Made by a program: the position numbers and the translations under genes. The notes beneath the pieces were generated by a model, which was not told the origin of the DNA, did no database searches, and was given only the letters and a program-made list of their open reading frames with translations. 23,901 nt of DNA from an uncultured archaeon (lineage in GTDB: Archaea; Asgardarchaeota; Lokiarchaeia; Sigyniarchaeales; Promethearchaeaceae), in assembly GCA_964623665.1 (NCBI GenBank), contig CAZUTM010000001.1:56129-80029 (forward strand), given 5' to 3'. Below, in pieces: positions 3,901 through 23,901 of the stretch (positions are counted from its first letter, which is position 1; the number at the start of each line of letters is the position of its first letter).

Positions 3901-4544
3901 ACACCCAATCCCAATCCAATTTGAATACAATCTTCAGTTTCTATTTTCAAATTATATTATTCAATTTAGAATTTGCCCCAATGGCCAATCAAATCAAGCA
4001 GAAAATCGAATTGCTTTTCTTCCTTTTCCATAATAACCGGATTCACCTCCAATCGAGAATCGTATTATTGAATATTCTATTTAATATTGTTAAACAATAT
4101 AATTTCTATGATCTCTTCGAATTTATCAATAACGAGATCAGCATTTGCGGGAAATTGGAATCAATTAAAGAATATCTCGATAATAAAATTAATAAACAAC
4201 AAAACTTGAAGCAAAAGACAGATGAACAAATCGATACGGATATTGAAATCCTCTTGAAAGATCAGGAAAATTACTTGAATGACTTTTTCTATCAATACTA
4301 CCTCGGATTATTCTTCTTCTATAGAAAAAACTATCAAAATGCCGAAAAATTTCTGAAAAAAGCATTTGTTTTGGATTGTCCGGAAAGCCTTAAACTTAAA
4401 AAATATCGAAATTACATGTTTCTATTGCACAAACTGAATAAAAAACAAGAATTGATGAAGATATATATCGAAGCACCATCAGATATCAAAGAAAATGAAA
4501 CCTTCAAAGAATATATTGCACCTCTCGGGCTAACTCAAGCATAA
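963..4544 (+). CDS. Large (1193 aa) hypothetical protein, apparently helical-repeat with a TPR-like C-terminal segment
   Basis: Longest ORF in the window, uninterrupted in AT-rich DNA where stops are frequent. It is K/I/L/E/N-rich. The C-terminal YYLGLFFFYRKNYQNAEKFLKKAFVLD resembles a TPR helix pair. No catalytic motif was recognised. A TATA-like TTTTAAATAA at 924-933 lies about 30 nt upstream of the ATG. Confidence 0.8.
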   Translation: MFEDIIDFLYSNRFIDLYEWAKKASIQNMNLLPTNYLRFLNLLHEGKIDDAIDVLQQISTIEVENEKLTIALNVLKEKRNILLEISQYLSKFDKNKPFVNVVLDKYILVGQVSDSSEYSKINSIERLKELASNPNVCYYNGNIIEFKGISSIERLSAIINDQDFMSQMENIKKYEKVYYFISKINEKMQRYFSENKIGMIVYNQELYLIKFIPMFSFDNSAQPTSGKRVSVLDNNFGTIIGILINSDLSFGDMVVFQEESLNSGEMNLRPLISFDLSLFKTEEKKNSGFTLETEEDINKFITAVKDWIDFGVQILSSNKKIDLKNRQDLYIYTKMELQKLENEQNLNIKISKLSQLLNFDHDQEMERKIKEILEKTYLIYIRETASKKLPLKLKELLNRLINLKLFKSEESFMKFMNLYSFILDKYSLDPKEIIESIDLLDKNWDLNDQHYKIIEKIHLTAIASLIEPQVASGNIQDILSIIEKNTPKSKILQNKLNLLIIDVVYHIYKNALKKDTKGAISNITFIMFLRKLAIHYDKAFPSISFAHQEESNRSNEPYNNITLLQQKLDSLFLSITSQLEFLLYMGDQSIIEFLELIKDFPSRMLKPNIKETLIGQILKNAIVLIPAHGMYELGKKLIEFLVSQKKTTQFVSFITKFVESLNQSAFNDINNSRYLESIVIIFDAIESYLPTLAIKEEYLIPFKSEVQTLLNNWYKKGNLPKTDFNLHKRLLQRLSIYIEKNSDVKMMYYMITIKDILETNPDNWTNLDNKFSLFIPEIINDRKVRNLFLSEAYKCIELNKIEDILLFQRTVNIFQLILKYRLEMAVENEIIDNLIKVFNKQIEKTLLYFLTHQENEAIQSLFSKIKNIKEIISVPVFQTFFDELLSKIEFNHEKLPYVENILSLVLQTFELINSIKIEKSDFIKYLHIITLPILSDENAKSRLLISLKSQFDAKFEIFTQGLVVAASSYYLSEQYQSYYYTQSQSNLNTIFSFYFQIILFNLEFAPMANQIKQKIELLFFLFHNNRIHLQSRIVLLNILFNIVKQYNFYDLFEFINNEISICGKLESIKEYLDNKINKQQNLKQKTDEQIDTDIEILLKDQENYLNDFFYQYYLGLFFFYRKNYQNAEKFLKKAFVLDCPESLKLKKYRNYMFLLHKLNKKQELMKIYIEAPSDIKENETFKEYIAPLGLTQA

Positions 4545-5092
4545 TTTCAACGAATCATATCAATTTTTTGGTAAAAGGTTCACCTTTTACGTAATGTTGG
4601 TAAAAACTGGTGAAGGATTTGAGCAACTGATGTTGGTTCAGGAAAGATGTTTGGGTAGAAAGGATTATCCATATTTTGCGCAGAGCGTCTATATTCAACG
4701 AGAATTTCCTTTCTCACCCTCTTTTTTTTATCTAAAAAATTCAAGCGAATAAAAGCAATGAAATTATATCTTCTCTTCTATGGTTTTTCATAACGAATGA
4801 TATGGCCGATAAATAAACAGCGTGTGTATTTTATTCAGAAACAAAAGAGACCGCCCGGAAAACCGAAAATTGATAGTTCTTGATCATTCGAATCAAAATT
4901 ATAGTTTGGAGCAAGAAATCAGTTAATAAGCATCTCGATAGCCCAATATATCTAAAAAAATTATAATAAAGGCTAAAATTGAAATAAAAGATAAATCAAA
5001 TCCATGAAAATGAATCAATAATCCAAGAATAAACAAATGGTCAGTCACCTTTTTTCCGAAAGCGCTTTTAAGCAAGATCTCGCTATTGACGC

Positions 5093-6685
5093 ATGGAAGT
5101 GAAAAGTATGCTTCACTCAAGAAAATTATGCATAGTAGCCTCGCTCTTTATCGGAATATTTGTTTTGGGCTCATTTATAACACCATCATTCGCCCAAACC
5201 GATGAATTGCAAGGAAAAAACTTCGATCAAGAATATTGGACGTTGAACTATAGCGCCAGCCCACCGAATGCCTCCGAACGAGCCGTTGATATCAATATTG
5301 CCTATATGAATATCGGTGGCGTGAAGACCATTTATCTTGCGCTTTTAAACATGACCGCGAATAAAAGCGATCCGTTGAAATTGGGATATGCGCCATTCCA
5401 AACCACGTATCAATACTTCAAAGTTCCGGATGGCAATCATGTACTCGTACAGAATGTCTTTGCAGGGTTAGTTGCGTATGTAAACAACGCAAGCACCAAT
5501 AATTCGGTTCCGGATGCTTCAGACAAAATCTTCTTCAGCTACACACTAAGCTCAAATTATCATCGAGCCTTGATTAGAAACGCCTTATCAAATGCAATCG
5601 GATACGACCCGTTGGGTTCAGAATCGCTTTATTCCTATACGGCAACCCCCTTCTTTGAAAGAATCGATAATGATGAAAAAATTGAATATAAATTTGGTAT
5701 CACCTACGAGAATATGTTCATTCTCTGGCACCCGGTTGCAATCGAAACCGATGATATTGAAACAACATCAAGTGCCAAGATACTTTTCAATAGAACCGCT
5801 GCCTTCTGCCGGCTTTCGAGTTTGAATTTCACATATGTGCTTTCCTATAATAAAACGGCGGATGATGGCAAGGTAAAAATGACCACCGAATATGATATCG
5901 GCCCGATCACCGACCTCTATATTCCATATGATGATCCGATAGGCACTGGAGCAATAGGAGGAATCGTATTAAATATTAGTGCAATCGATTCCGGAAAAAC
6001 ACTCTCCAGATATAATACCACTGATGCGATAACAAAACGATTGAACGGAACGGCAACATTCGGGCGATTCAGTCTTGCAGTTCTTAATTATGCACGCATG
6101 ATTGTTATAGAAAATGTGGATGCCCGTGCCAGAAACAGAATTGAGGAACAAGGCGCGATCGAAAATGCAAATGGCCAAAAAGTGGATCCTGAGAACGTGA
6201 ATGCCACGGAACAGCACCGAATTAAATTAAGAGATGCGGTCAATAAAGAAGCATTTATGATCGATTTTGCAAGCAAACCCGATTATATTTTAAATGATGA
6301 TACCGCAAACCCGATTTTGGCACCGGTTCAGCTCTATCCGAAAACAGCTATTAAGAACCCTGCGATGCTCTTGTTATATGGTTATGCAAACCGCTTTATC
6401 ATGAACTACGCAAAGAAATTCATCGAAAAACAATATCCAAATGCTGATGAAGCAAGATTAAAATTACGAATTGCCGCGCATGATGGATTGTATTATGCAA
6501 TCTGCTTCCCACGATGGAATGGGCTAAAAATAAATCAAGATCCAACATTCGTAGCTTTCACCGATCTTTCATCTGCTGCCCTCGGAAAAAAGATCGATGG
6601 CTTCTCTCTCTCATTACTTCTTTTAGCCGCCTTGGGAACCGCGTTTGCCGTTGTAATGATCAAAAAGCGCAAAGCGATGTACTGA
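5093..6685 (+). CDS. Secreted, C-terminally membrane-anchored, probably N-glycosylated surface protein (hypothetical)
   Basis: Signal-like N-terminus MLHSRKLCIVASLFIGIFVLGSFITPSFAQ. C-terminal hydrophobic helix LSLLLLAALGTAFAVVMI followed by KKRK. I count 13 N-x-S/T sequons. No enzymatic motif was seen. The start could be ATG 5093 or ATG 5108. Confidence 0.8.
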   Translation: MEVKSMLHSRKLCIVASLFIGIFVLGSFITPSFAQTDELQGKNFDQEYWTLNYSASPPNASERAVDINIAYMNIGGVKTIYLALLNMTANKSDPLKLGYAPFQTTYQYFKVPDGNHVLVQNVFAGLVAYVNNASTNNSVPDASDKIFFSYTLSSNYHRALIRNALSNAIGYDPLGSESLYSYTATPFFERIDNDEKIEYKFGITYENMFILWHPVAIETDDIETTSSAKILFNRTAAFCRLSSLNFTYVLSYNKTADDGKVKMTTEYDIGPITDLYIPYDDPIGTGAIGGIVLNISAIDSGKTLSRYNTTDAITKRLNGTATFGRFSLAVLNYARMIVIENVDARARNRIEEQGAIENANGQKVDPENVNATEQHRIKLRDAVNKEAFMIDFASKPDYILNDDTANPILAPVQLYPKTAIKNPAMLLLYGYANRFIMNYAKKFIEKQYPNADEARLKLRIAAHDGLYYAICFPRWNGLKINQDPTFVAFTDLSSAALGKKIDGFSLSLLLLAALGTAFAVVMIKKRKAMY

Positions 6686-6924: not shown

Positions 6925-7803
6925 ATGAAAATTTTGATATTATGCGCGCATCCGGATGATTTGGAATTCTGTATCCCGAATCTACTTATCGGATTGTCTC
7001 GAAATCCCGAAATCTCTTCTGAACAAAAGAAAGAATTAAACAGATTTCTCTTTTCCGAGAAAAGGAAAGGCCAGAGCTCGGAGATCTGTGTGTATTCGAT
7101 GACCAAAGGTGAGATGAGTACATTCACCGATGTGATAAAATCAACGAAACGAGCTGCCGAAATCCGCATTAAAGAGCTAAATAAAAGCCAACATCTCTTA
7201 ACTGGAAAAACTCCGCATTTTCTTAATTTCTTCGATGGTTATCTGAAAGTCACCGATAAAGCCGTTGCAATTATAGAAAAGATTATAGCGAGGGATCGGC
7301 CGGATATTGTATTGGCCCCCGAGCCTTGTTTGGGCTATTACCATCATCCCGATCATGTTGCCACCGGAAAAATAGCCTTCTATGCGGTTCGACGATTGCG
7401 GACTAAAGAAAAAGCGAATAAACCGATTTTATATTTCTTTCAATCGATTTCCAACGATTGGTATTACCCGGATTTCCCGTTCAACAAAGAAAGAATTAAA
7501 AGCGCTTTAGCCGCGCATAAATCACAACAAGGGATTTTGTTTGCAGGCTCGATATTAAAATGGTTTGAAACATTAATTCATGGCCTTCATATTCGGAATT
7601 ATACGAGGGCGGAATGTTTGAGGTGGCAACCCGTTTTTGGCACAATTACGCAGAAAACAATCCGATATCGCTTTGAAAAGATGAATTTTCTAAAGAAAAT
7701 CATATATTATGTGTCGAAACATTTTGTGGATGCTCATCCTGTGAAGTACTCCGTTCGATATGATAAATATTATGATGGAACGGTCGAATTGGAAGATGTT
7801 TAA
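6925..7803 (+). CDS. PIG-L / LmbE family N-acetylglucosaminyl deacetylase
   Basis: MKILILCAHPDDLEF (AHPDD motif) and YYHHPDHVATGK (HPDH motif) are the zinc-site signatures of the PIG-L/LmbE family. I prefer ATG 6925 to the track start 6823, because the AHPDD motif normally lies close to the N-terminus and the extra 34 codons look non-coding. Confidence 0.85.
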   Translation: MKILILCAHPDDLEFCIPNLLIGLSRNPEISSEQKKELNRFLFSEKRKGQSSEICVYSMTKGEMSTFTDVIKSTKRAAEIRIKELNKSQHLLTGKTPHFLNFFDGYLKVTDKAVAIIEKIIARDRPDIVLAPEPCLGYYHHPDHVATGKIAFYAVRRLRTKEKANKPILYFFQSISNDWYYPDFPFNKERIKSALAAHKSQQGILFAGSILKWFETLIHGLHIRNYTRAECLRWQPVFGTITQKTIRYRFEKMNFLKKIIYYVSKHFVDAHPVKYSVRYDKYYDGTVELEDV

Positions 7804-7806
7804 TTT

Positions 7807-7918
7807 GGAAATGGAAATGGAAATGGAAATCGAAAAACCGGAAATTGAGGGAGAATGGAAATGGAAATGGAAATGGAAATCGAAATCGAAAAACCGGAAA
7901 TTGAGGGAGAATGGAAAC
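7807..7918. repeat. Tandem duplication: 50-nt copy (7807-7856), 56-nt copy (7857-7912), then a 6-nt partial. Each copy starts with (GGAAAT)x4
   Basis: Direct reading gives GGAAATGGAAATGGAAATGGAAATCGAAAAACCGGAAATTGAGGGAGAAT, then the same unit with one extra ATCGAA. It spans the gap between the PIG-L stop (7801-7803) and the start of the next gene. Confidence 0.9.
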
Positions 7919-8790
7919 ATATATTTAATCCGAATCTTTCAAAAAAACAAATTCAGAACAGAGGGCATTGGTACACCAACGATCATTGCTTTGTAAAGTC
8001 ATCCGATGGAACATGGCACGCGTACGGCATAGTCGGCTATAAAAAATTTGGGTTTGTGTTCTCTTGGATAATTGAGAAGAATTTGTTTCATATTTCTTCT
8101 AAATCTCTCTTTTCGGAAGAATGGCAAGAACATGACTATGCATTATCTGCATCGACCGAACAAGGTGAGCGATTTGCATGGGCTCCGCATGTTCTCTATT
8201 GGAATGGCAAATACTATATGTTTTACGCGGTAGGAGACCTCAGAAAATTCTCTTGGCTTCTCCCTTCTCCCGGAAAAATACATATGGCCACATCTAATGA
8301 TGCGTTCAATTGGAAAAGATCAAATACGAACCCAATCGTTTATGCCCCGGGTTATGCTCGAGATCCGATGATTCTCTTCACTAATAACGAATTCTATATG
8401 TATTACACGTGCAACACAAGCGAGATTCACTATGCTTCCGCTGTTGCGGTAAAAAAAAGTAAGGATTTGATCTATTGGACCGGCCCGAAATTGGTTCACC
8501 AATATCCTTTTAACAAAATATGGTTGGCAGGTCATACCGAAAGCCCATTCGTGGTGGAAAGAAAGGGCATTTACTATCTTTTTACGTGCATGGCGTTGAA
8601 AAATTACAATTTGACCAAAGTTTATTGGTCGAAAAACCCCGAATGGTTTCCCCGAAAAAATTTTATCTGCGATCTCAATACCCATGCATCAGAAATCATT
8701 TTTGATGAAAAAGAAGGCTGGTTTATCTCCAATACGGGTTGGGATAAAAAGGGACTTTTTCTTGCGCGCTTAAGGTGGAAGGGCCTTTAA
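7855..8790 (+). CDS. GH43-like five-bladed beta-propeller glycoside hydrolase (clan GH-F), cytoplasmic
   Basis: Blade-like motifs WAPHVLYWNGKYYMFYA, ARDPMILFTNNEFYMYYT and GHTESPFVVERKGIYYLFT. No signal peptide. The start lies inside the ME repeat; ATGs at 7855, 7861, 7867 and 7873 are all in frame. Confidence 0.7.
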   Translation: MEMEMEMEIEIEKPEIEGEWKHIFNPNLSKKQIQNRGHWYTNDHCFVKSSDGTWHAYGIVGYKKFGFVFSWIIEKNLFHISSKSLFSEEWQEHDYALSASTEQGERFAWAPHVLYWNGKYYMFYAVGDLRKFSWLLPSPGKIHMATSNDAFNWKRSNTNPIVYAPGYARDPMILFTNNEFYMYYTCNTSEIHYASAVAVKKSKDLIYWTGPKLVHQYPFNKIWLAGHTESPFVVERKGIYYLFTCMALKNYNLTKVYWSKNPEWFPRKNFICDLNTHASEIIFDEKEGWFISNTGWDKKGLFLARLRWKGL

Positions 8791-8950
8791 ATTACAGACA
8801 TGAAATATAAAGAGCAAAATGATCGCTGGAAAAATAACCGACTCCGCAAATCTTGTTGACATATTCTGCGGGAATGCATGTGACCCCTCTCTTTTTTTTA
8901 GATGTTCATTTTTTTCAATTCAAGCCAATACACGACTCGCAAATAGGTAA

Positions 8951-9123
8951 ATGTGTGCGATCGAACGGCATATTATGAGTGCGGGTACGATCGAACGGAA
9001 TAATATGCGTGCGGGTGCGATCGAACGGCATATTATGAGTGCGGGTACGATCGAACGGAATAATATGCGTGCGGGTGCGATCGAACGGCATATTATGAGT
9101 GCGGGTACGATCGAACGGAATAA
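8951..9123. repeat. Perfect 60-bp tandem repeat, about 2.8 copies, built from two diverged 30-bp half-units
   Basis: The unit GTGCGATCGAACGGCATATTATGAGTGCGG + GTACGATCGAACGGAATAATATGCGTGCGG starts at 8955, 9015 and 9075 with no mismatches between 60-bp copies. The half-units differ at 4 of 30 positions. Each half-unit contains a CGATCG palindrome. The array lies between convergent genes, beyond their T-run terminators. Confidence 0.95.
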
Positions 9124-9143
9124 AATAGAAAGAGAAGTTGAAT

Positions 9144-9150
9144 AAAAAAA
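9144..9150 (-). terminator. Oligo-T (T7 on the minus strand) just downstream of the actin stop codon
   Basis: A7 on the plus strand at 9144-9150 gives T7 in the actin sense, 14 nt past the stop. A short stem, CGGTG (9158-9162) pairing with CACCG (9171-9175), spans the stop codon. Archaeal terminators are typically oligo-T. Confidence 0.4.
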
Positions 9151-9163
9151 TATTGTGCGGTGT

Positions 9164-10312
9164 TTAGAAGCACCGGTGGATAACTTGAGCACCGTATTGT
9201 TTGTATTCCCTGCGGGTAACCCACATTCTCTGGAAGGTCTTCAACGAAGCAAGGATAGATCCTCCAATCCAGACCGAATACATACGTTCGGGTGGTGCAA
9301 TAATCTTTACATCGACTGAATCCGCAACTTGTTCTTTGATTTCTTTGGTTAACCGTTCTTTTAATCCCGGATACATGGTGGAACCACCGGACAGAACGAT
9401 GTTTGCATACAAATCTCTTCGGAGGTCGACATCACATTCTTTGATTGCGTTAACAATAAGGTCATCGAGTGGTTGCAACTCTTTTCCGATAACGCTCGGG
9501 TTAAAGAACACTTCTGGTGCCAAGAATCTCTCAACACCGATTGTGATGGTTTCTCCATCGGGTAACATATAGACTTTTTCCATACCCGAAACCCGTTTGG
9601 CCAAGAGAATTTCTTTTTCTGGGTTCAATGCAACATAACATAATTTTTCTTTAATATCCCGAACGATTTCTTTTTCCGCACCGGTTGAGAATGCGTGTCC
9701 TTTTTGTCTTAAAAGTCTCTGTAAATAGTTGGTTATATCCCGCCCTGCGAGGTCAACACGGGCAATTGTGTGACTGAGCGCGAAACCTTCATAGATGGGA
9801 ACCACGTGCGAAACTCCATCACCGATATCAATAACACAACCAGTGGTACGTCCAGATCCGTAGAGAGAAAGGACTGCTTGCATAGAAACATACATAGCCG
9901 GAACATTGAAGGTCTCGAACATAATTTGTGCCATCTTCTCTCGGTTTTTTCTCGGGTTCAAAGGTGCCTCCGTTAACAAAATCGGGTGTTCGGAGGGATC
10001 GACTCGAAGATCAGTAAAGAAGGTGTAGTGCCAGATTTTCTCCATGGCAATCCAGTCCTCAATAATACCGTGTTCAACAGGATAATTTAATTTCAAAACA
10101 CCTTTCATCGAAAGCGCTTCTTCACCGATATAATACTCCCGCGAGTAGTGTTCTACATCAGACATAATCGAAACATATTTTGGATATCCAACGAGCGTGG
10201 GAAACACACTACGTGGTTGGTCTTCACCGGCAAAGCCGTTTTTGGACATACCAGTACCGTTGTCTACTACAAGCGGTTTCGCTGATAGGAAATCTTGTTC
10301 TTCAGCCGCCAT
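9164..10312 (-). CDS. Eukaryote-like actin (lokiactin-type Asgard actin)
   Basis: Long stretches match canonical actin motifs: [108 protein letters not shown] and [23 protein letters not shown]. The length of 382 aa is close to eukaryotic actin. Confidence 0.97.
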
Positions 10313-10653: not shown

Positions 10654-11172
10654 ATGGAAGAAAACAACCTATTCAATCACCATTTGGTAGCCCAAGGAAA
10701 ATTAGACTATGCACGAGGAAAAAGGCCTAATGTTGATTGTATCTTTTGCGCTTTGCTAAATAACCATCCGGATGTGGAGAAATTGCCTCTGTATGAAACA
10801 GATGAAATTCTTGTTTCGCTTAATATGTTTCCATATAATCCGGGACACTTGATGGTGATTCCCAAGGTCCATTATGAATCATTCGAGGATCTCCCAAAAA
10901 ATCTCTATAATAAAATATGGGACTATGTTATTGCTTCGCAGAAACTCTTAAGAAAAGCGTTTTCGCCTATCGGTTTTAATGTCGGGTATAATCAAGGCGA
11001 TTTTTCGGGCGCTTCAATCAAACATATTCATGTTCATGTAGTTCCCAGATATAAGACGGAATTAGGATTCATCGATATTATTGGGCAGACAAAGGTGATT
11101 GTTCAAACCGTTTCCGAGTGTTTGCAGAAAATGAAACCCCTTGCCGACGAATTTTATGGCCCCTTGAAATAG
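10654..11172 (+). CDS. HIT (histidine triad) family nucleotide hydrolase/transferase, Ap4A-phosphorylase/GalT-like branch
   Basis: Histidine triad HIHVHVVPR, an upstream CIFCAL cysteine pair, and LNMFPYNPGHLMVIPKVH, which is typical of the branch. Confidence 0.85.
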   Translation: MEENNLFNHHLVAQGKLDYARGKRPNVDCIFCALLNNHPDVEKLPLYETDEILVSLNMFPYNPGHLMVIPKVHYESFEDLPKNLYNKIWDYVIASQKLLRKAFSPIGFNVGYNQGDFSGASIKHIHVHVVPRYKTELGFIDIIGQTKVIVQTVSECLQKMKPLADEFYGPLK

Positions 11173-12908: not shown

Positions 12909-14651
12909 TTAACCGACAGAATGATAATGAACGCTGGATCCGCGGTAGTGCAAACTCGAACGATAATATCCACGACGATATCTTGGGCCCACAATATAAC
13001 TCATCGGGTGGTATCTAACGATTTTCTCTATAACCGGGAACATTATGTACAAGGAGGTAATATGCATAATCGGCATCGTGAAGTACCTTAGTTTTATTAA
13101 GTCTTCAAGTGAGACTTCATCTTCCAACTCAAGAATCCGCTGATTAATGCACATGAGGAAAGCCATTTCGAGCATCTCCGGGATGAAACGGAACTCTTTG
13201 GATTTCATTATGATGTTTTGAGCCCGTTTAACGATGCACCAGGATTTTTCCACCGACCAAGGTAAAAGGGTAGCAAGTGCTGCGAAGAACCCGATTTCTT
13301 GGATATTGAATTTCAAAATTTCTCTGTATTGCAAGATGTTTTCGGGTTGCTTTGCAAAGGAAAGAAGAAATGCTGAAATCACTTTTTCGTTTAAGTCTTT
13401 AAATTCTATTTTGGAATATGGGTTGTTCGGGTCTGGTGGTTGTGTCTGAATCGCTTTTTGATTTGTTATTTGCCCGGGTTGACCCATTTGGTTTGTTTGT
13501 TGATTGAATGGTAGGCCCGATTGACCCATTTGATTCTGAATATTTGAATAACCTTGCTTAGGCTGCAAAAATGGGGGGGATTGACCACTACCACCATATA
13601 GCGTTTGAATTTGGGGTTTCGGAAGCAATTGCTCAATTAGGTATTTCAAGCGAGCGGAAACATCATTGCGAATCTTTTGTGTGAAATCTTGCGACAATGA
13701 CAAATTAACTGAGCGAAATTCTGTGTTGTTTCTGATGGTCCTTACATATTGATCGATGATAGGATCTTGATTCGCTCTGCTATTCCCGATTCTTTGCATC
13801 ATTTGTTCAAAGAAATTCAAAATTGCAATCATGGTGTTTCTCTCTTGTGAAAATTGTAATAAGGCGGTGTATTCCGGGCTTTGGTTTAATGGGATTTTAT
13901 AGGTATTGAATTGCACACCGTAAAGCCAGCCAAGCAATAATAGAATTATTTCTTCAAACTCGTCATAATTGGGATATTGCCAAATTTGATCCATACTTGA
14001 AGCGATTCTTGAGGCATTTCCTCCGATATTCACCGCAAACAATCCAAAGCTTCTTGGGAATTGACGGAATCGCGTCGTATCATCAATATCTTTCAAGATC
14101 GTCTCGAAGGCCGCATCAAGCGATTTAAGATGAAATAAAAACTCCTTAAAATCTCGTTGCAGCATGTTCGGTCGGACCTTTAATTCGTCGATGCAATCCT
14201 TTCCAAAGAGGGTTAATTGAACCCTTCTTCCATTGACAATCAGAGATTTATTGAGGATTTCCAACTTTTGATTTGTTGCCATCATTTGGTCGCGCAGAGT
14301 ATTCACTTTAGTCTCTATTTCAGAAACATTTTTCTTTGCAGCTTCGAATTCCGCCCTTAGAAGATTTGATTTGCTCATTTTAAATGCCAATTTTTTGAGG
14401 ATGGGGAGCTGTTTCACTTCTTGTTCTTTCCAAAGCAGAAAATTTTTCGCTTCTCTGAGTTTTTCAGATTCTTTGATAAATTCTGCTTTGATTCGAGTAT
14501 ATTCCTCTTTTATCTGACCAGGGTCTCCATCGATCTTGACTTCCGATAACAGACCATCGGAAATTAATACTTCTAGCTCATCGGGTCGGATCGAAGGGAT
14601 GAGCGTTCGATTGAACGTCTCCAAATATTCCAATACTTTTTTACTTTCCAT
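12909..14651 (-). CDS. Hypothetical protein: N-terminal coiled-coil, central Q/N/P/G-rich low-complexity linker, C-terminal helical region with an R/Y/G-rich tail
   Basis: 580-aa uninterrupted ORF. Heptad-like charged N-terminus (EEYTRIKAEFIKESEKLREAKNFLLWKEQEVKQL). Linker YGGSGQSPPFLQPKQGYSNIQNQMGQSGLPFNQQTNQMGQPGQITNQKAIQTQPPDPNNPY. Tail GPRYRRGYYRSSLHYRGSSVHYHSVG. No known domain was recognised. Confidence 0.75.
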   Translation of the reverse strand: MESKKVLEYLETFNRTLIPSIRPDELEVLISDGLLSEVKIDGDPGQIKEEYTRIKAEFIKESEKLREAKNFLLWKEQEVKQLPILKKLAFKMSKSNLLRAEFEAAKKNVSEIETKVNTLRDQMMATNQKLEILNKSLIVNGRRVQLTLFGKDCIDELKVRPNMLQRDFKEFLFHLKSLDAAFETILKDIDDTTRFRQFPRSFGLFAVNIGGNASRIASSMDQIWQYPNYDEFEEIILLLLGWLYGVQFNTYKIPLNQSPEYTALLQFSQERNTMIAILNFFEQMMQRIGNSRANQDPIIDQYVRTIRNNTEFRSVNLSLSQDFTQKIRNDVSARLKYLIEQLLPKPQIQTLYGGSGQSPPFLQPKQGYSNIQNQMGQSGLPFNQQTNQMGQPGQITNQKAIQTQPPDPNNPYSKIEFKDLNEKVISAFLLSFAKQPENILQYREILKFNIQEIGFFAALATLLPWSVEKSWCIVKRAQNIIMKSKEFRFIPEMLEMAFLMCINQRILELEDEVSLEDLIKLRYFTMPIMHITSLYIMFPVIEKIVRYHPMSYIVGPRYRRGYYRSSLHYRGSSVHYHSVG

Positions 14652-14757: not shown

Positions 14758-15981
14758 TTATTCCAAAAAAGGGATGCTGATGGGCATAATGTTGGCCTCA
14801 TGATTCGATAAACATACTTCAAGTTTGCCTTGATCGAATTTCGGATAGCAGTAGTCGTCATCTTGAAGCGCAATATACACGAGATCGCAGAGTTCTTTTC
14901 GATACTCTACCCAAGGATTTGCTTCACCTTTTAATCGTAAATAAAATCCAAATACATGCGTAAGCCCATTGAGAAATTCGAACACCAGTTTGTGCCATTC
15001 ATCTTGGATTTCCGCCTTGACTTTTTCTTCAGGGACCGATTTCCAAAGTAATCCTTCGAGATCTGCAAAATGGATGATGCCGTCAGGTGCAACGATGCAG
15101 TCTTTATCGAACCAGACATCATGGAAACATAATCCTTCTATTTGCTTTGTTTTTTTATTTCGACGGGCGGTTCGTACGAAGAGGGAAAGAATCGCCGACC
15201 CGCTTTTGATAAAATTCAATAGGAATCGCTCGGCTTGCTCCGGATTCGTTATTCCGAATATGTTATTAAGTGTATGTTCATCGGAAATCACATGGTCGGA
15301 TTCAAAATACAATCGAATGTTAGATGGGACCAAGCGGATTGATTGGTAGAACGGCAGCGGAAATCTGCGAAACCAATAAAATTGCCTCGCAATAGACTCA
15401 AATTCTTCGGGCAATCTGACAGCAGCAATTAACGGACAGATGTATGCCCCTGAAATCGAAACGCCCGCGCTATCATTCGCAAGCATCGAAACGGAAAGTT
15501 CCCGAAGCGCATTTTCTTGACCATGACCGCCATATGGGCTTTCATTCATCCAATTTTCGCTCATGATAAATCCATTGGCCACATCGATCGATTTTATAGC
15601 CTCAATTAATTTCGGATCTGAGGATCGACAAGCCCGTAAGAGGGCTTCGGCTGAAAGCATGTGTTCGCTGAAGAGATCGGTATAGGCCCCGCAGCCTTTG
15701 ATTGATAAAAAATATTCCCGATTATCTATCGTAACTGCGTGGGACGGGATAATACAATTTCGATTCTCGTCCCGAATCGCGCTGTAGTCCGCCGTGCTTC
15801 TTGATATCGCATTGATTTTGCGGAATAAATGTGCGCTGCCGGACCCCAAGTATGTATGAACCCATTCTTTCAAGTTGGCAAACTTCGGATTTGCTTCAAT
15901 ATATTTTCCGCGTTGGGGCAATGCGATGGCCGTAATGGTGGTGTTCCATATACCGGATAGATAATCTTGAATTTTGCTCAT
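14758..15981 (-). CDS. Hypothetical protein with protein-kinase-like (PKL) motif arrangement
   Basis: 407-aa ORF. YFLSIKGCGA could be a beta3-Lys-type motif. LCFHDVWFDKDCIVAPDGIIHFADLEG resembles the HxD...(N/K)...D-x-E catalytic and metal-binding loops of aminoglycoside/choline-kinase-type phosphotransferases. The fold assignment is by eye only. Confidence 0.75.
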   Translation of the reverse strand: MSKIQDYLSGIWNTTITAIALPQRGKYIEANPKFANLKEWVHTYLGSGSAHLFRKINAISRSTADYSAIRDENRNCIIPSHAVTIDNREYFLSIKGCGAYTDLFSEHMLSAEALLRACRSSDPKLIEAIKSIDVANGFIMSENWMNESPYGGHGQENALRELSVSMLANDSAGVSISGAYICPLIAAVRLPEEFESIARQFYWFRRFPLPFYQSIRLVPSNIRLYFESDHVISDEHTLNNIFGITNPEQAERFLLNFIKSGSAILSLFVRTARRNKKTKQIEGLCFHDVWFDKDCIVAPDGIIHFADLEGLLWKSVPEEKVKAEIQDEWHKLVFEFLNGLTHVFGFYLRLKGEANPWVEYRKELCDLVYIALQDDDYCYPKFDQGKLEVCLSNHEANIMPISIPFLE

Positions 15982-19042: not shown

Positions 19043-19531
19043 ATGAATCTTTCTGAAGAAGAGAAGCGATTAATCGATGTCCGTGTTTATCCGATTCGAC
19101 CCCATATCGGCGTGGGCTGTATCATTCGCTATTATGATCAAATTTTGCTTATAAAGCGGAAATATGACCCCGAAGCGGGTAAATGGTCGATTCCGGGTGG
19201 GCATCTTGAGCTGGGCGAATCGCCGGAGGAAGGTGCGGCCAGAGAAGCAAAGGAAGAAGTTGGAATCGATGTGAAAATCATTGGATTATCCGGCGTCGTT
19301 AACAAAATTCTTAAAGATAATCACGGGAAGATAAAATACCATTATGTTTTGATTAATTTCTTTGCCGAACCTATATTAAATAAAAATCAAGGTGAACTCG
19401 TGATTCGGCCTTCAGAAGAATGCCTTGATGCAAAATTTGTATCGATCTCGGAATTAAACACCTTTGATTTAACCAAATCGCTTCTGGATCATTTTATCTT
19501 TTTGGGCTTAATGAATAAGCCATGCATGTGA
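19043..19531 (+). CDS. Nudix hydrolase
   Basis: Complete Nudix box GGHLELGESPEEGAAREAKEEVGI (G-x5-E-x7-REUxEExGU). Confidence 0.9.
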   Translation: MNLSEEEKRLIDVRVYPIRPHIGVGCIIRYYDQILLIKRKYDPEAGKWSIPGGHLELGESPEEGAAREAKEEVGIDVKIIGLSGVVNKILKDNHGKIKYHYVLINFFAEPILNKNQGELVIRPSEECLDAKFVSISELNTFDLTKSLLDHFIFLGLMNKPCM

Positions 19532-19540
19532 TTGTTTTTG

Positions 19541-19562
19541 TTTTTTTTTCATGAAAAAAAAA
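19541..19562. terminator. Bidirectional oligo-T terminator: perfect 22-nt palindrome T9-CATG-A9
   Basis: TTTTTTTTTCATGAAAAAAAAA read directly. It gives T9 to the plus-strand Nudix transcript 10 nt after its stop, and T9 to any minus-strand transcript coming from the RT gene. Confidence 0.5.
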
Positions 19563-19563
19563 G

Positions 19564-19574
19564 TTTTAATTTTT
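19564..19574 (+). promoter_or_regulatory. TATA-like box (TTTTAATTTTT) that could drive a plus-strand transcript starting near 19595
   Basis: An AT-only element centred about 26 nt upstream of the 5' arm of the terminal helix of the structured element. This is the spacing expected for archaeal TATA-to-TSS. It is weak evidence in AT-rich DNA. Confidence 0.25.
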
Positions 19575-19594
19575 GAATCTTCATTTTAGTTTTG

Positions 19595-19809
19595 TGTAGC
19601 TTTGGCGTTCTCGCAAGAGAAGGCGCGATGTATCATCGTGCAGGACCGATTGCGGTATTGCTGCATTCCATAACTCGGCGATCATTTATTCAAATAACTG
19701 CCGAGTTGAATGCTACGCACAATATTTAAACAAATATCGGCGTTGATGCGCCCTATTTTGTTTCAATTTGGTCGGTCGACCAAATATTTGACTCGAAAGC
19801 AAAGCTACA
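19595..19809. ncRNA. Candidate structured ncRNA of about 215 nt next to the RT gene (possible RT template/msr-msd analogue); strand unresolved
   Basis: A GC-enriched patch in AT-rich DNA. A 10-bp terminal helix pairs 19595-19604 (TGTAGCTTTG) with 19800-19809 (CAAAGCTACA). Internal hairpins: 19608-19612/19617-19621 with a GCAA (GNRA) loop; 19623-19630/19634-19641 (8 bp, one G-U); 19645-19648/19653-19656; 19672-19679/19700-19707 (8 bp perfect, AACTCGGC/GCCGAGTT); 19739-19742/19749-19752; 19767-19773/19778-19784. T6 lies at 19815-19820 in the plus sense and T9 at 19562-19554 in the minus sense. Confidence 0.5.
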
Positions 19810-19831
19810 TATTCTTTTTTCGCTTTCTTTG

Positions 19832-19865
19832 TTTTCTCTCTCGCTGTTTTCTTTTCTCTCTCGCT
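19832..19865. repeat. 14-nt direct repeat TTTTCTCTCTCGCT x2 (period 20) inside a strand-skewed pyrimidine tract (purine-rich on the RT strand)
   Basis: Identical copies at 19832-19845 and 19852-19865. The whole 19811-19890 stretch is almost entirely C/T on the plus strand. Confidence 0.85.
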
Positions 19866-19898
19866 TCTTTGTCTCATTCTCATTTCTGTGATCGTTAA

Positions 19899-21410
19899 TC
19901 ATTTTGGAGATCCATCGATCATTTTTTTAAATTTCTGTGCTTTTTGAGGATTCACCATGTGTAGAAATGCTATTTTTCCTTGAATCTCGTTCAGTTCCCG
20001 TTCCTTTTCTTCTTTTTGCAATCCTTCTTTGTTTTCATTGAATTGGTGGATTTGAGCCCGCAATTTCATACACCATTGCCTATCGGGGTTCAATTCATCA
20101 TTTACCACGATTCCGGTTATCCGTTTCTTATGACCCTTTCGGTAATACTTAATTTTTTCAAGATTGGGCTTTAATTCTTCATCCGTAATGATTCCTAAGG
20201 AATAATAGACCATTTTATCTAAATTATGAATTGTTTGCTTGGTTGAAATGGCAATGTCATCCGCATATCTCGTATATACAAAGCCCATTTTTGTCCAAAA
20301 AGCGTTGAGTCGTGCATCCAAATTTTTTGCGTAGAGATTTGCAATCATAGGGCTCGTTGGGGCGCCTTGAGGTGCATACCGCTTTTTTCGAAATACATCG
20401 GTGCATAAACACGCAAGAAGGCCTGCAACCGGTCTTCCGTATCCAAATCCTAGAAACACTTTGTAGACGTGAAGAAAGGAGAGGGAAGGAAAGAAATCTT
20501 CAAGATCGAGTTTGATCATCGATTCCGCTTTCAAATGCGGTTTTGCGTTATCAACAATCGATTTGCCGGTGCAAAAGCCTTTGCATACGTCCGGGACCTC
20601 GGATTTTTGAAGAATCTCCTTCAAAATCTTTTTTTGTATCATTTTCAATCGATATTTTGGTGCCGAAATCATTCTCATCTTGCCGTTCGCTTTGGGAATA
20701 AAATATCGTCGATAATGGGGCGAATTATATTCTCTCCATCTCGTTTTATTGAAAAGAAGATGCTTTTTCTTTATATAATATCTTGGGTTATCCGGATCTT
20801 GTGAATATGCATAGCCTAACAATTCGTTAACACTAATATTCAGAAAATATGCGAGATCTATTATTGTCGATACGTGCGGGAGTTCGGTTCCCGGCTTCAA
20901 ATTGAAAACAAACTTTCGAGGCATAGAAGTATATACAATTTTATTTAAATTTGGTCCGAAATATACTCTTTTCAACAAAGGAAACACAGATTCAATCATT
21001 TTTACTCGTTCGAAAGGTAGCTTTGGTGTATTTTTATTAATGGCGTTCAATAAAGAACGTTTAAATCGGGTGTGATATCTCATTGAATGGGCCTTGATTT
21101 TATTATTCACATCATTGGAATGGGCTTTTCTATTCACATTATACTTGAAATTGGCTCTTATCCTTATTTCATTAACAAACTTTTGAAAATCTGCGTCAGA
21201 ATCGGTTAAAATCTTCTCTTTTATTTTCTCTTCCAAAATAGGGAATAAGGATAGTTTGTATCTTTCTAATCTCCTTATCCTTGCTCTCGACGATGATTTC
21301 TTCTTTGAGCGACGCGTGTTCGCTTGATTGTAAAAATAAAGATTCAACACGATTATTATGAAGAAAATTAAAAACAGTGTAATCCACAAGAGAAGCAATG
21401 AGCCTTCCAT
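19899..21410 (-). CDS. Retron-type reverse transcriptase with an N-terminal transmembrane helix and basic extension
   Basis: RT motifs occur in order: YFIPKANGKMRMISAPKYRLKMIQKKIL (1-2), LDLEDFFPS (3), PQGAPTSPMIANLY (4), YTRYADDIAIS (5; YADD = 20256-20267) and KRITGIVVN (7, VTG-type). The retron-specific NAxxH (DNAKPH, 20535-20549) lies upstream of motif 3. The N-terminus has LLLLWITLFLIFFIIIVLNLYFY followed by RRSKKKSSSRARIRRLERYK. Confidence 0.9.
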   Translation of the reverse strand: MEGSLLLLWITLFLIFFIIIVLNLYFYNQANTRRSKKKSSSRARIRRLERYKLSLFPILEEKIKEKILTDSDADFQKFVNEIRIRANFKYNVNRKAHSNDVNNKIKAHSMRYHTRFKRSLLNAINKNTPKLPFERVKMIESVFPLLKRVYFGPNLNKIVYTSMPRKFVFNLKPGTELPHVSTIIDLAYFLNISVNELLGYAYSQDPDNPRYYIKKKHLLFNKTRWREYNSPHYRRYFIPKANGKMRMISAPKYRLKMIQKKILKEILQKSEVPDVCKGFCTGKSIVDNAKPHLKAESMIKLDLEDFFPSLSFLHVYKVFLGFGYGRPVAGLLACLCTDVFRKKRYAPQGAPTSPMIANLYAKNLDARLNAFWTKMGFVYTRYADDIAISTKQTIHNLDKMVYYSLGIITDEELKPNLEKIKYYRKGHKKRITGIVVNDELNPDRQWCMKLRAQIHQFNENKEGLQKEEKERELNEIQGKIAFLHMVNPQKAQKFKKMIDGSPK

Positions 21411-21430
21411 ACTTCTCTAGTGAGCCAAGT

Positions 21431-21442
21431 AAAATTTAAATG
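21431..21442 (-). promoter_or_regulatory. TATA-like box (minus sense CATTTAAATTTT) in the 36-nt gap upstream of the RT start
   Basis: It lies 21-32 nt upstream of ATG 21410, which would give a leaderless or very short-leader RT mRNA. This is weak evidence in AT-rich DNA. Confidence 0.3.
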
Positions 21443-21446
21443 TTAT

Positions 21447-22361
21447 TTAAGTTGATTTTGCGGAAGACCACACAATTCCGATGAAAATTAGCAAGGCTCC
21501 GATAGCAAACGCAAGCGTCAAATATTCCTGTCCAAAGAAGATTCCGAAAAGGACTGCAAATACCGGTTCCAGCGAGTACATGATGGCGGCCCGGGTTGAG
21601 TCAATAAATTTTTGGGCCCAGGTTTGGATCATGAGTGTCAATGTGGTTGAGCAAACTCCAAGATAGACCAAGCCCCAAATGATAATCGATGTGAAATCTT
21701 CGATAATAAGCCGTTCGCCCGCTATCCATGAGGCCAGAAACATGAAGATGCTTATGAGAATCATTTGTATCATGATGAATGCGAATATATCCACTTTTTT
21801 TACGTATTTTTCAATGAGAACGATTTGAATTGCGTTGAAAAATGCGCCCAAAATCACCAAAATATCGCCAATATTGGGTGCAAGTTCGAGATCCGCAGAA
21901 TTTGCATTTCCGAATATCATTATGGACATTCCGATCATCGCGACTGCAACCGCACCGATTTGATGCTTTTTTATTGGCGATTTGATGAGGAAATAGGCAA
22001 TAAACGGCACAAATACAACATATAAACAAGTTAGAAAAGCGCCTTTGTTCGATGTGGTATATTGAAGGCCGTAGGTTAAGAAGGCTAAGAGGAAGAAGAA
22101 CACTATGGCGCTTATTGATCCGCCTTCAACGGTGGTTTTGTTTAAACGCTTTAATCGACCCCACACGGGTGCGAAAGCGAGAAACGCAATTACATGCCGG
22201 ATTCCTTGAAATAATAGCGGAGGAATTTGTTCCACAGATTCTTTTATGAGAAGGTATTGCGAGCCCCAAATAATGGTGGCGAGGATTACTAAAATGATTG
22301 CGATCGTTTTTTTCATTTGCAGATCAGAGTTAGGTGCTTCTGGTGGTATCTCGCTTTCCAT
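21447..22361 (-). CDS. EamA/DMT-superfamily transporter (10-TM type)
   Basis: Two-fold repeated hydrophobic architecture. The N-terminal IIWGSQYLLIKESVEQIPPLLFQGIRHVIAF is typical of EamA domains. The start may be Met16 (MKKTIAI). Confidence 0.85.
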   Translation of the reverse strand: MESEIPPEAPNSDLQMKKTIAIILVILATIIWGSQYLLIKESVEQIPPLLFQGIRHVIAFLAFAPVWGRLKRLNKTTVEGGSISAIVFFFLLAFLTYGLQYTTSNKGAFLTCLYVVFVPFIAYFLIKSPIKKHQIGAVAVAMIGMSIMIFGNANSADLELAPNIGDILVILGAFFNAIQIVLIEKYVKKVDIFAFIMIQMILISIFMFLASWIAGERLIIEDFTSIIIWGLVYLGVCSTTLTLMIQTWAQKFIDSTRAAIMYSLEPVFAVLFGIFFGQEYLTLAFAIGALLIFIGIVWSSAKST

Positions 22362-22465
22362 ACGGGCAGAAAGCTTAACGGCTATAAGAAGGAATGGAAT
22401 TTCGGATTTTTCAAGAGTGCTAGCAAAGCACTTTAAGTATCGGTGTCCTTTGTTTACCGATTGAG

Positions 22466-23901
22466 TTGAAGCAAAAAATTACGATTCATGTGGTGGCCCA
22501 GTCGCATATCGATCTTGCGTGGTGGTGGCGTTTTGATCCCGAAACCATCAATGTGTGTACCAAACTCACTTTTGGGCCTGCGACCGAACATATGGATCGC
22601 TTTTCTGACTATCATTTTTCTCAAAGTCAAGTGCCTTTATATCGTGCGACCGAGCAGATTTATCCCGAGATCTTTTCAAAAATCGAGACTTATCTCAAAG
22701 AGGGTCGTTGGGAAATCGTGGGCGGGATGTTTTGCGAGGCGGAAGGCGGTGAACCTTGCGGAGAATCTCTTGTTCGGCAAATTATTTATGGAAAAAAATA
22801 TTGGAAACAGCGTTTCGGTGTTGATGTGAGAACCGGGTGGCAAGAAGATAGCTGGACGCACCCGTGGCAATTACCACAAATCATGAAAAAAGCCGGTATC
22901 GACTATTATATGTTTATTCGTTGTCTCGGGTCTTACAAACATCCGCTTTTTTGGTGGGAGTCTCCGGATGGGTCGAAAATCCTTGCACACCGGCCACTGT
23001 TGCAACAATGGAATTATCCAAATATTAAATGGAAATTATATGCGAAAAAGATAGCAAAAAAATATGGGATTTCCGATGTTATGATTATGATCGGGAAAGG
23101 AGATCATGGCGGTGGGCCTAAAACCAAGGAAATCGAAAAGATATTGAAATTCAGAACCAAAAATAAAAAGAGTTTTGATGTTAAATTTAATCGTTTTGAT
23201 AAATATATGGATCTCATTTCGAAAAACCCCGATTTTCCGGTATTGAAAACGGAGCTGGCTCATGAATTGGTGGGCGATCTCACAAATGTTGGAGAAATTA
23301 AAAGAGAGAATCGGGAATTGGAACAATTGCTTCTTTCAACCGAAAAATGGGCTACTATTGCTTCTTTATTATCTCCACAAATCTTTCGATTTCCACAAAA
23401 GGAGTTCGATGATGCATGGGAGTTGCTGCTCTTCAATCAATTTCATGACATCATCGGCGGAAGCGGGCTCCTCGAAGTTCATCTCGATGCATTCCGGGAT
23501 TTCGGAAAAATTCGTAGACTATTAACCGAGATATGGGCTATAACCAAGGATTCGATTATTAAATCCGCGTCCAACCGTGCAGAAAAAACCGAGGGGTGTA
23601 TTGACACAGTAGTGATTTTTAATTCGGTTTCATGGGACCGAACGGAGTATGTTGAGTTAGACCTTATGGACAACGAAGCGGAAGATTATATCATCGAAGA
23701 TAGCCATGGAAACCGATATTCTTACCAAAAAGTTCAAAAGGATTTCAAACCAACGCTGCTTACTCAAGTAAATTTGCCTTCTTTTGGCTTCATAACGCTT
23801 TTCATAAAATATATTACGGGTTCCGATAGGGGATTTAATCATTCGTGTTCGGGTGTGCAATCGAATCAAGAGGGTTCGGGTGTGCAATCGAATCAAGAGG
23901 G
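22466..23901 (+). CDS. GH38 alpha-mannosidase, N-terminal about 478 codons (runs off the right edge)
   Basis: Absent from the ORF track (non-ATG start, no stop in the window). My translation of the frame containing GTG 22490 gives ITIHVVAQSHIDLAWWWRFDPE, EGRWEIVGGMFCEAEG, WQEDSWTHPWQLPQIMKKAGIDYYMF and LFNQFHDIIGGSG, all GH38 hallmarks. The in-frame stop is at 22421-22423 and no ATG occurs before the HVV motif, so the start is TTG 22466 (MKQKITIHVV) or GTG 22490. Confidence 0.85.
   Translation, partial: MKQKITIHVVAQSHIDLAWWWRFDPETINVCTKLTFGPATEHMDRFSDYHFSQSQVPLYRATEQIYPEIFSKIETYLKEGRWEIVGGMFCEAEGGEPCGESLVRQIIYGKKYWKQRFGVDVRTGWQEDSWTHPWQLPQIMKKAGIDYYMFIRCLGSYKHPLFWWESPDGSKILAHRPLLQQWNYPNIKWKLYAKKIAKKYGISDVMIMIGKGDHGGGPKTKEIEKILKFRTKNKKSFDVKFNRFDKYMDLISKNPDFPVLKTELAHELVGDLTNVGEIKRENRELEQLLLSTEKWATIASLLSPQIFRFPQKEFDDAWELLLFNQFHDIIGGSGLLEVHLDAFRDFGKIRRLLTEIWAITKDSIIKSASNRAEKTEGCIDTVVIFNSVSWDRTEYVELDLMDNEAEDYIIEDSHGNRYSYQKVQKDFKPTLLTQVNLPSFGFITLFIKYITGSDRGFNHSCSGVQSNQEGSGVQSNQE
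23847..23901 (+). repeat. Perfect 27-bp in-frame tandem repeat (2 copies plus 1 nt at the window edge) inside the GH38 ORF
   Basis: GTTCGGGTGTGCAATCGAATCAAGAGG occurs at 23847-23873 and 23874-23900. It encodes SGVQSNQEG twice. The true copy number is unknown because the window ends. Confidence 0.9.

Follow-up and report, generated by a model that had tools for sequence, protein, structure and literature searches.

Does the stretch of 23,901 nucleotides analysed here (the window), which comes from a contig of an uncultured Lokiarchaeial archaeon, encode a genuine retron, and what would such a system consist of in an archaeal cell? Retrons have been studied almost exclusively in bacteria, and an earlier note on this DNA, made from the sequence alone, had proposed that the open reading frame (ORF) at 19899-21410 is a bona fide retron-type reverse transcriptase (RT) and that it may belong to an uncharacterised archaeal retron-like system. 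Both proposals held up, in that a retron RT and a structured non-coding RNA (ncRNA) gene convergent with it were found and the literature searched holds no characterisation of the system. We consider it probable that these form a two-gene retron of Asgard archaea (Promethearchaeota/Lokiarchaeota), made up of an anchored, type XIII-like RT and its convergent ncRNA, and working by the membrane mechanism proposed below. Coordinates of the features discussed are collected in Table 1.

Motifs, profiles, structures and fold agree on the nature of the ORF. Besides the motifs listed in the table it contains LDLEDFFPS, with the catalytic D302, and QGAPTSP, and residues N288, A289, H292, D302, Y382-D385, T432 and G433 are invariant in all 17 members of the clade to which it belongs. 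The NAxxH signature claimed for it is thus present as NAKPH, and the claimed VTG-type triad is at its proper position but reads ITG in the window RT, VTG being found in most clade members. Pfam RVT_1 matched residues 238-433 (E = 3e-24). The best 25 of 49 PADLOC matches were every one a retron RT model, with DRT, Abi and UG models absent from these 25, and the top model was RT_XIII (2.8e-94, 315 bits), compared to 253 bits for the runner-up type. Among NCBIfam models retron_St85_RT scored 214 bits, compared to 57 bits for the group II intron RT/maturase model TIGR04416 (below its cutoff of 300) and 40 bits for Drt2 (below its cutoff of 390), and Rfam scans of the window, by gathering threshold and by E-value, found no group II intron and no other family. 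When PDB was searched by sequence the best match was the Ec86 RT (2.7e-35), followed by Ec83, Ec67, Kva2 and Ec78, the top 14 matches being retron RTs and the group II RTs reaching just ~1e-6. A Foldseek search with an AlphaFold2 (AF2) model of the RT (mean pLDDT 79) returned retron RTs as all of its top 18 matches, with DRT9 and DRT4 far lower, and the TM-score to the Ec86 RT, normalised to the target, was 0.75-0.77. Placement relies on profile scores, E-value gaps and homology of the msr (see below), and the comparison with other RT classes by hidden Markov model, sequence and fold puts the protein inside the retron group. This confirms a genuine retron-type RT with intact catalytic residues, nearest to type XIII (the Mx162 group).

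Among 5.8 billion protein clusters there was one identical copy, and a further 16 relatives matched at E <= 1e-106, covering 90-98% of the query where complete; the next matches after this 17-protein clade were bacterial retron RTs at ~5e-51, aligning only from about residue 177 on. The named clade members are recorded as 'Candidatus Lokiarchaeota archaeon' and 'Promethearchaeota archaeon', and a taxonomy lookup gives Promethearchaeota as a phylum of the archaeal kingdom Promethearchaeati, which we take to be the Asgard archaea. In the GTDB representative genomes there were three archaeal loci, then bacteria only; on viral contigs a single distant RT (30% identity) was seen and no close relative was found. 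Asgard orthologues separated from bacteria by a clear E-value gap are thus at hand, and their neighbourhood is partly conserved: a locus from another assembly, L086, is collinear with window positions 19904-23815 at 74% nucleotide identity, keeping the order GH38-like gene, EamA, RT, and the EamA-RT order is also kept in L089. The compositional uniformity that had been judged by eye was borne out by tetranucleotide use, which in the 2-kb segments holding the RT correlates with the rest of the window at r = 0.94-0.95 (window mean 0.921). The RT, EamA and actin proteins are recorded on a single 88,128-bp contig, and the actin (9164-10312; Pfam Actin, 8e-132) lies 9.6 kb from the RT as had been stated. 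The RT region is native Asgard DNA and no product of a chimeric assembly. The claim that archaeal examples are rare stands, but they are not unprecedented, since 4% of the RTs of archaea are of retron type (PMC8632793) and PMC6868368 cites putative retrons from euryarchaea.

Downstream of the RT gene lies a spacer of 367 bp (19532-19898) that proved to be highly structured. It holds an inverted repeat that is perfect between 19595-19604 and 19800-19809 and extends to 12 bp, forming the a1 and a2 arms of a closing stem, and the 219-nt RNA bounded by these arms folds with a minimum free energy (MFE) of -84.5 kcal/mol (z = -7.17; none of 200 shuffles was equal). A covariance model of its msr part matches the window once, on the + strand, at 57 bits. 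The predicted priming G follows the published position rule, by which that residue stands right after a1 (PMC6868368, PMC7736814). A position for the ncRNA upstream of the RT, or within its 5' part, was considered and ruled out: the gap between the EamA stop and the RT ATG is just 36 bp, and the RT N-terminus is conserved as protein, which leaves no room for an msr-msd there. The earlier note mentions neither this ncRNA gene nor the predicted membrane anchor and clade-specific extension of the RT described below.

The ncRNA was found downstream of the RT in 11 of the 12 loci with enough flank, in 13 copies (besides the window, one each in L001, L006 and L087-L092, and two each in L002 and L084). 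The neighbouring protein genes of these loci are mutually unrelated, save between close relatives, and the closing-stem sequences are wholly different from locus to locus. All 13 copies nonetheless share one order of parts, namely a1, G, two conserved short hairpins (H1 and H2), one or more variable long hairpins of 9-25 bp, G and a2, with the G after a1 and the G before a2 present in 13/13 (context YUG-G-CGU). In L089, the closest relative, the base of the long msd hairpin is kept and its interior is different. Full-length ncRNAs aligned by MAFFT left the a1 arms unaligned, and an anchored alignment of spliced sequences was used instead. In each of these, 9 nt of a1 with the G and the msr part are joined through an artificial A6 linker to 6 nt and 9 nt of a2, and the linker replaces the variable middle and lies outside every counted helix. 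For the closing stem (9 bp) and H2 (8 bp) together, 97.7% of cells were paired and 10 of 17 pairs had changed on both sides; none of 500 shuffles matched this, and sliding the partners by 1-3 columns lowered pairing to 33-50%. Considered by itself over the 13 copies, the closing stem had two-sided changes in 6 of 9 pairs, and H2 had them in 4 of 8, with 20 G.U cells. Pairing in H1 was 89%, and H1 and H2 taken together reached 96%, 9 of 13 pairs showing two-sided change.

Two loci carry tandem ncRNA genes beside a single RT (L084 at ~7336-7494 and ~7559-7724; L002 at ~7672-7805 and ~7901-8035). The msr parts of the tandem copies are almost identical and their msd hairpins differ, suggesting that one RT could make two distinct multicopy single-stranded DNAs (msDNAs).

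The helices of the ncRNA are read on the strand opposite the RT. On that strand 216 of 221 cells pair (24 as G.U), compared to 194 of 221 in RT sense, the MFE is the lower in 12 of 13 copies, and the covariance-model matches to the Asgard copies (46-57 bits) all fall there (13/13). A full-score TATA-like 8-mer stands 27-30 nt upstream of a1 in 10 of the 13 copies (11 loci), usually with an A run before it, and a run of at least five T follows within ~12 bases of a2 in 10 of 13. The ncRNA thus appears to be a separate gene, convergent with the RT and transcribed on its own between predicted ends, because the G.U pairing, the layout, the positions of promoter and T run and the covariance matches all favour the opposite strand. 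The TATA-like box ahead of the RT gene has the same spacing to the ATG as the ncRNA box has to a1, which suggests that the RT too is transcribed from a promoter of its own, into an mRNA with little or no leader. Given the convergent arrangement, read-through of the RT mRNA would be antisense to the ncRNA and could give built-in regulation. A palindrome, T9-CA-TG-A9 (19542-19562), separates the NUDIX stop from the promoter region of the ncRNA and could be a bidirectional oligo-T terminator; an RT mRNA ending only there would run antisense to the entire ncRNA in its 3' part.

Type XIII retrons (RT clade 10: Retron-Mxa1/Mx162, Mxa2/Mx65, Sau1/Sa163 and Nex2/Ne144) are catalogued in Mestre et al. 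2020 (PMC7736814). RT_XIII is the best RT model for the window protein, and the nearest bacterial relatives of the protein are full-length type XIII RTs: the model scores 290-331 bits against the four clade members tested (the window RT, P0004, P0012 and P0017), over model positions 138-420 of 469, and 440-660 bits against the bacterial neighbours, five of seven tested matching it over its full length. The msr covariance model also gave weak matches (20-25 bits) in six bacterial type XIII-like loci, on the RT strand and just upstream of the RT start. These matches carry the same H2, GCCGCGGUG-UUY-CGCCGCGGUGG (shared form GC(C/U)GCG(A/G)UG...C(A/G)(U/C)CG(U/C)GG(U)GG), and are flanked by inverted repeats of 8-14 bp at the a1/a2 positions. 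Because of this shared H2 sequence and these repeats we judge, on sequence comparison, that the Asgard ncRNA and the Mx162-group msr are homologues; the gene of the former has moved downstream and become inverted, and it seems to have acquired archaeal transcription signals. Both RTs have an N-terminal extension, and inheritance appears vertical in both, as reported for myxobacterial type XIII retrons (PMC7736814, PMC6868368). The system is a retron in the broad sense whose nearest kin is type XIII, and it departs from that type in three defining features, since it lacks a full-length match to RT_XIII, a linked SWIM protein and a linked WGR/HEAT-ARM protein. The Asgard RT extension, moreover, is non-homologous to the bacterial one, unique to the clade and in all full-length members headed by a predicted transmembrane (TM) helix, and the host is an archaeon. 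In classical retrons, type XIII included, the msr-msd lies upstream and is transcribed with ret as one RNA (PMC7736814), whereas the Asgard ncRNA lies downstream on the opposite strand in 11/11 loci, apparently with its own promoter; this is a departure in gene layout only and leaves the kind of system unchanged.

Two other accounts of the structured element have to be set against a convergent ncRNA gene. One is that it is the 3' untranslated region (UTR) of the RT mRNA, in RT sense and with no separate convergent RNA, and there is something to be said for this, as the first long T run after the RT stop in RT sense lies beyond the element (19542-19550) and the RT-sense fold is also stable (z = -6.4 for a 374-nt spacer). 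It was rejected on the counts of G.U against A.C, the positions of promoter and terminator and the known retron layout: read in RT sense, 22 G.U cells become A.C or C.A mismatches, the conserved hairpins would stand beside a2 and the variable ones beside a1 (the reverse of every known retron), and in L001 two ORFs on the other strand come between RT and element. We regard a 3' UTR as improbable. We find it barely credible that the RT region comes from bacterial contamination or a chimeric assembly, or that the element is a bidirectional terminator with no relation to the RT. Such a reading can draw on the overwhelmingly bacterial distribution of retron RTs and on the place of the element between convergent genes, where terminators are expected, but the two independent assemblies are syntenic, composition is uniform and the named clade members are all Asgard, and the element accompanies the RT even where the surrounding genes are unrelated, and its homology to bacterial msr is sequence-specific.

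The part of the RT that sets the clade apart is its N-terminus. All 14 full-length clade members begin with a hydrophobic stretch of 19-23 residues (Kyte-Doolittle means 2.0-3.4) followed by a Lys/Arg-rich segment; in the window RT the 19-residue mean is 3.12, the next 25 residues include 9 K/R and no D/E, and AF2 models residues 2-54 as a single helix. Since a Lys/Arg-rich segment follows the helix, the positive-inside rule predicts a signal anchor that, if inserted in the membrane, would leave the RT on the cytoplasmic side. Homology to bacterial retron RTs starts near residue 178, with the helices IIDLAYFLNISVNELLGYAY, and the first ~177 residues are, as judged from these alignments, a clade-specific extension. 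Its all-helical domain had no match in Pfam and none among PDB folds (best E = 2.9). A profile of the domain run against 1.84 billion representative proteins found nine at E <= 1e-10, of which seven are RT-length or already clade members and two are fragments (215 and 256 aa), so that no relative outside the clade was found among these representatives; patterns from the domain matched 142 stretches in a metagenome scan, none of them a relative, in a collection that apparently lacks such contigs. As a candidate effector, the fused TM helix and helical domain accordingly have no recognisable function by Pfam, PDB fold or profile search. Membrane helices were also seen in bacterial relatives, at the N-terminus in 4 of 103 and at the C-terminus in about 30 (for example 658-aa Delftia proteins); the helix-bearing bacterial type XIII-like RTs include P0085-P0120 (Delftia and others), P0051, P0066, P0088 and P0102. 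Membrane tethering may be a recurrent and little-noted trait of the type XIII-like group.

The genes around the RT in the window encode an EamA transporter, a NUDIX hydrolase, GH43, GNAT, peptidase U32, a HIT protein and actin (Pfam). That no transposase, integrase or recognisable retron effector lies nearby, as the earlier note had it, was upheld for all 14 sizeable window ORFs by Pfam and PADLOC, and no tRNA genes were found in the window. Type XIII retrons carry a DEDE/winged-helix/SWIM protein and a WGR-like/HEAT-ARM protein (PMC7736814); no relative of the former (cluster 114) was found among the 14 window ORFs or in the gene calls of the related loci, and none of the latter (cluster 216 and relatives) among the window ORFs. 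The NUDIX gene (19043-19531), which shares the strand of the ncRNA gene and stops 62 nt ahead of it, matches the PADLOC candidate PDC-S07 (4e-13), and for the HIT protein (10654-11172) the match is to ThsC2 (8e-11). These appear to be no more than family-level matches, and in the other loci neither gene is kept beside the RT; its neighbours there are housekeeping genes such as EF-2, CDC48, PPDK and the CCA-adding enzyme. L087 and L091 share 12TM_1/ABC genes downstream of the RT, and L087 and L092 share a 340-aa ORF upstream of it. In L090 a 72-aa stand-alone WGR-domain ORF (4621-4839) comes just after the ncRNA, the sole such case, on a contig that ends 94 nt further on.

In the mechanism that we propose, the ncRNA would be transcribed from its own TATA-type promoter toward the 3' end of the RT gene, ending at the oligo-T run, and would fold with a1 paired to a2. 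A membrane-tethered, cytoplasm-facing RT would recognise the msr hairpins H1 and H2, prime on the 2'-OH of G19605 and copy the msd from next to G19799 to give a branched msDNA. The N-terminal TM helix and helical module of the RT would be the output part, a role proposed for it because no locus holds a separate effector gene, or would localise the complex, and the RT-msDNA complex at the membrane could serve as a sensor, as in antiviral retrons. An antiviral role is the least secure of these steps. Tentatively, the proposal may be taken further, to a self-contained single-protein archaeal retron in which the helical domain of the tethered RT is the effector or signalling part, the convergent ncRNA gene is independent, and some genomes make two msDNAs. 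Were this so, the current I-XIII scheme would have no number for this type of retron, which to our knowledge would be the first archaeal one with a defined ncRNA.

Several observations weigh against these proposals. The pairing of RT and ncRNA by adjacency is not absolute, because in L004 (Promethearchaeota Bin_342; RT at 684-2147, 45% identity) no ncRNA was found in the 683 nt upstream or ~5 kb downstream, and in L001 a distance of 1.27 kb, holding two small ORFs on the opposite strand, separates the ncRNA from the RT. In L002 and L006 H1 has only 2-3 bp, TATA-like and oligo-T strings occur often at a G+C content of 35-40%, and the N-terminal 137 positions of RT_XIII are unmatched in the window RT, so that the match is to the core only. 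A built-in effector is the weakest step, because nothing in the N-terminal domain suggests enzymatic or pore-forming activity. Finally, the loci stand among housekeeping genes rather than in defence islands and look vertically inherited, and both facts weaken the antiviral reading.

This last point leads to the possibility that the RT and ncRNA form a real retron that has been domesticated to serve the cell rather than virus defence (in regulation, the stress response or DNA metabolism at the membrane, for instance) and is passed on vertically in one Lokiarchaeal lineage, a case that has been made for the type XIII retrons of myxobacteria. Synteny is kept at 70-77% nucleotide identity (window/L086/L089; L087/L091; L087/L092), no defence genes are nearby, housekeeping genes are, close relatives are missing from the viral contigs, and type XIII retrons track the host 16S and have been suggested to play a non-defence role (PMC7736814). 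We think such domestication possible but doubtful, as the msd hairpins turn over fast between close relatives (window and L089; L002a and L002b), which is typical of conflict systems, all retrons so far tested whose function is known are antiviral, and vertical inheritance over a short range is compatible with defence. An unlikely explanation is that this is a standard tripartite type XIII retron whose winged-helix (WH)-SWIM and WGR/HEAT-ARM partners are encoded elsewhere in the genome. The RT core and msr H2 are indeed closest to type XIII, and the small WGR ORF of L090 recalls the WGR-like domain of accessory cluster 216 (PMC7736814), but that ORF stands alone among the loci and lacks HEAT repeats, neither PADLOC nor Pfam matched a partner among the 14 window ORFs, none was seen in the gene calls of nine other loci, and retron partners normally adjoin the RT. 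A two-gene retron with a proposed role at the membrane thus remains our preferred reading.

Retron-Eco1 (Ec86, type II-A3), structurally the best characterised, gives the best PDB match in both sequence and fold and shares the logic of the ncRNA (a1/a2 stem, G right after a1, msr hairpins, long msd hairpin), but Ec86 has a separate NDT effector, no TM anchor and no long N-terminal extension, and in it the ncRNA precedes the RT and shares its strand. The stand-alone (msr-msd)-RT cassettes of RT clades 2 and 11 (Ec107-like; PMC7736814) likewise consist of RT and ncRNA with no effector gene; they belong to other RT clades, however (RT_Ec107-like scores 202 bits, compared to 315 for RT_XIII), and are bacterial, of canonical gene order and without a TM helix or N-terminal domain. 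In type IV Retron-Eco6/Ec48 a membrane-spanning element is the presumed output, a resemblance that is one of analogy only, since the two-TM effector of Ec48 is a separate gene with an RT of clade 3, whereas the single Asgard TM helix is fused to the RT and has no predicted effector activity. UG/Abi systems such as DRT2, DRT9 and DRT10 also combine one RT gene with one structured ncRNA gene, but they are of an unrelated RT lineage and their DNA synthesis is protein-primed, rolling or template-free, not primed from a 2'-OH.

Table 1. Features of the retron-like locus, in window coordinates
Feature	Position	Strand	Basis
Retron ncRNA gene (msr-msd), 219 nt, convergent with RT	19593..19811	+	Folding, covariance model, homologues
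TATA-like box TTTTAATT, 29 nt upstream of ncRNA 5' stem, A run before it; candidate archaeal promoter	19564..19571	+	Predicted
a1 arm of closing stem, UGUGUAGCUUUG	19593..19604	+	Perfect inverted repeat with 19800-19811
Predicted branching (priming) G, directly 3' of a1; G19799 opposite across stem	19605	+	G in 13/13 copies; priming predicted
msr hairpin H1, UUCUC-GCAA-GAGAA	19608..19621	+	5/5 pairs changed on both sides
msr hairpin H2, GCGCGAUG-UAU-CAUCGUGC, most conserved element	19623..19641	+	8 bp, 100% of cells paired
msd-like template region; long 19-bp hairpin at 19663-19713, locus-variable sequence	19642..19798	+	Folding, locus comparison
a2 arm of closing stem, CAAAGCUACAUA	19800..19811	+	Inverted repeat, covariation
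T/C-rich tract, T6 run at 19815-19820 right after a2; candidate oligo-T terminator	19812..19875	+	Predicted; repeat D1 and TRF row
Retron-type RT gene, 503 aa + stop codon	19899..21410	-	ORF and translation, Pfam, PADLOC, PDB, Foldseek
Retron RT core, residues 178-503 (N-terminal helices, fingers, palm, thumb)	19902..20879	-	Alignments with bacterial type XIII RTs; fold match
ITG triad, residues 431-433, within KRITGIVVN (429-437); site of retron VTG triad	20112..20120	-	T432, G433 invariant
Catalytic YADD, residues 382-385	20256..20267	-	Invariant in clade
NAxxH motif, NAKPH, residues 288-292 (DNAKPH 287-292)	20535..20549	-	N, A, H invariant in clade
Clade-specific all-helical N-terminal domain, ~residues 50-177	20880..21263	-	Conserved in clade
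Predicted N-terminal transmembrane helix, residues 4-27, SLLLLWITLFLIFFIIIVLNLYFY, then Lys/Arg-rich stretch	21330..21401	-	Kyte-Doolittle; AF2
TATA-like box TTTAAATT, begins 30 nt ahead of RT ATG	21433..21440	-	Read from sequence

Elsewhere in the window, a perfect 60-nt tandem repeat of 2.8 copies (or 30 nt x 5.5) lies at 8955-9123, directly 3' of the actin gene (stop 9164, - strand), and yields a repetitive 90-aa ORF (8920-9192); no other part of the window deviates as much in composition as the 8-10.5 kb region (tetranucleotide r = 0.82-0.86). Two further tandem repeats were seen, one of 56 nt x 2 (98% matches) at 7806-7917, overlapping the start of a GH43-like ORF (7855-8790), and one of 27 nt x 2 that closes the window (23847-23901). 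ORFs with no Pfam or PADLOC match include one of 1193 aa (963-4544; G+C 0.31, compared to 0.38-0.44 elsewhere), one of 530 aa (5093-6685) and an adjacent pair on the - strand of 580 and 407 aa (12909-14651 and 14758-15981), the 580-aa protein having a Q/N/P-rich low-complexity middle.

In the literature search no paper was found that gives an ncRNA, an architecture or a function for any archaeal retron-type RT, none that links retrons to Lokiarchaeota and, within the limits of the retron literature searched, none that describes a convergent ncRNA arrangement. The findings suggest that a type XIII-like module was transferred from bacteria to Asgard archaea (or the reverse) and then rewired to archaeal transcription signals. 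They provide a concrete, testable archaeal retron, with a defined RT, a 219-nt ncRNA and a predicted priming G, and its layout implies that the partnership of RT and ncRNA can persist without co-transcription. A predicted membrane anchor and an uncharacterised domain stand where effector genes are usual, and this compact RT/ncRNA pair from a relative of eukaryotes could interest builders of retron-based editing tools. No concept is overturned by this, but the host range and the architectural range of retrons are widened.

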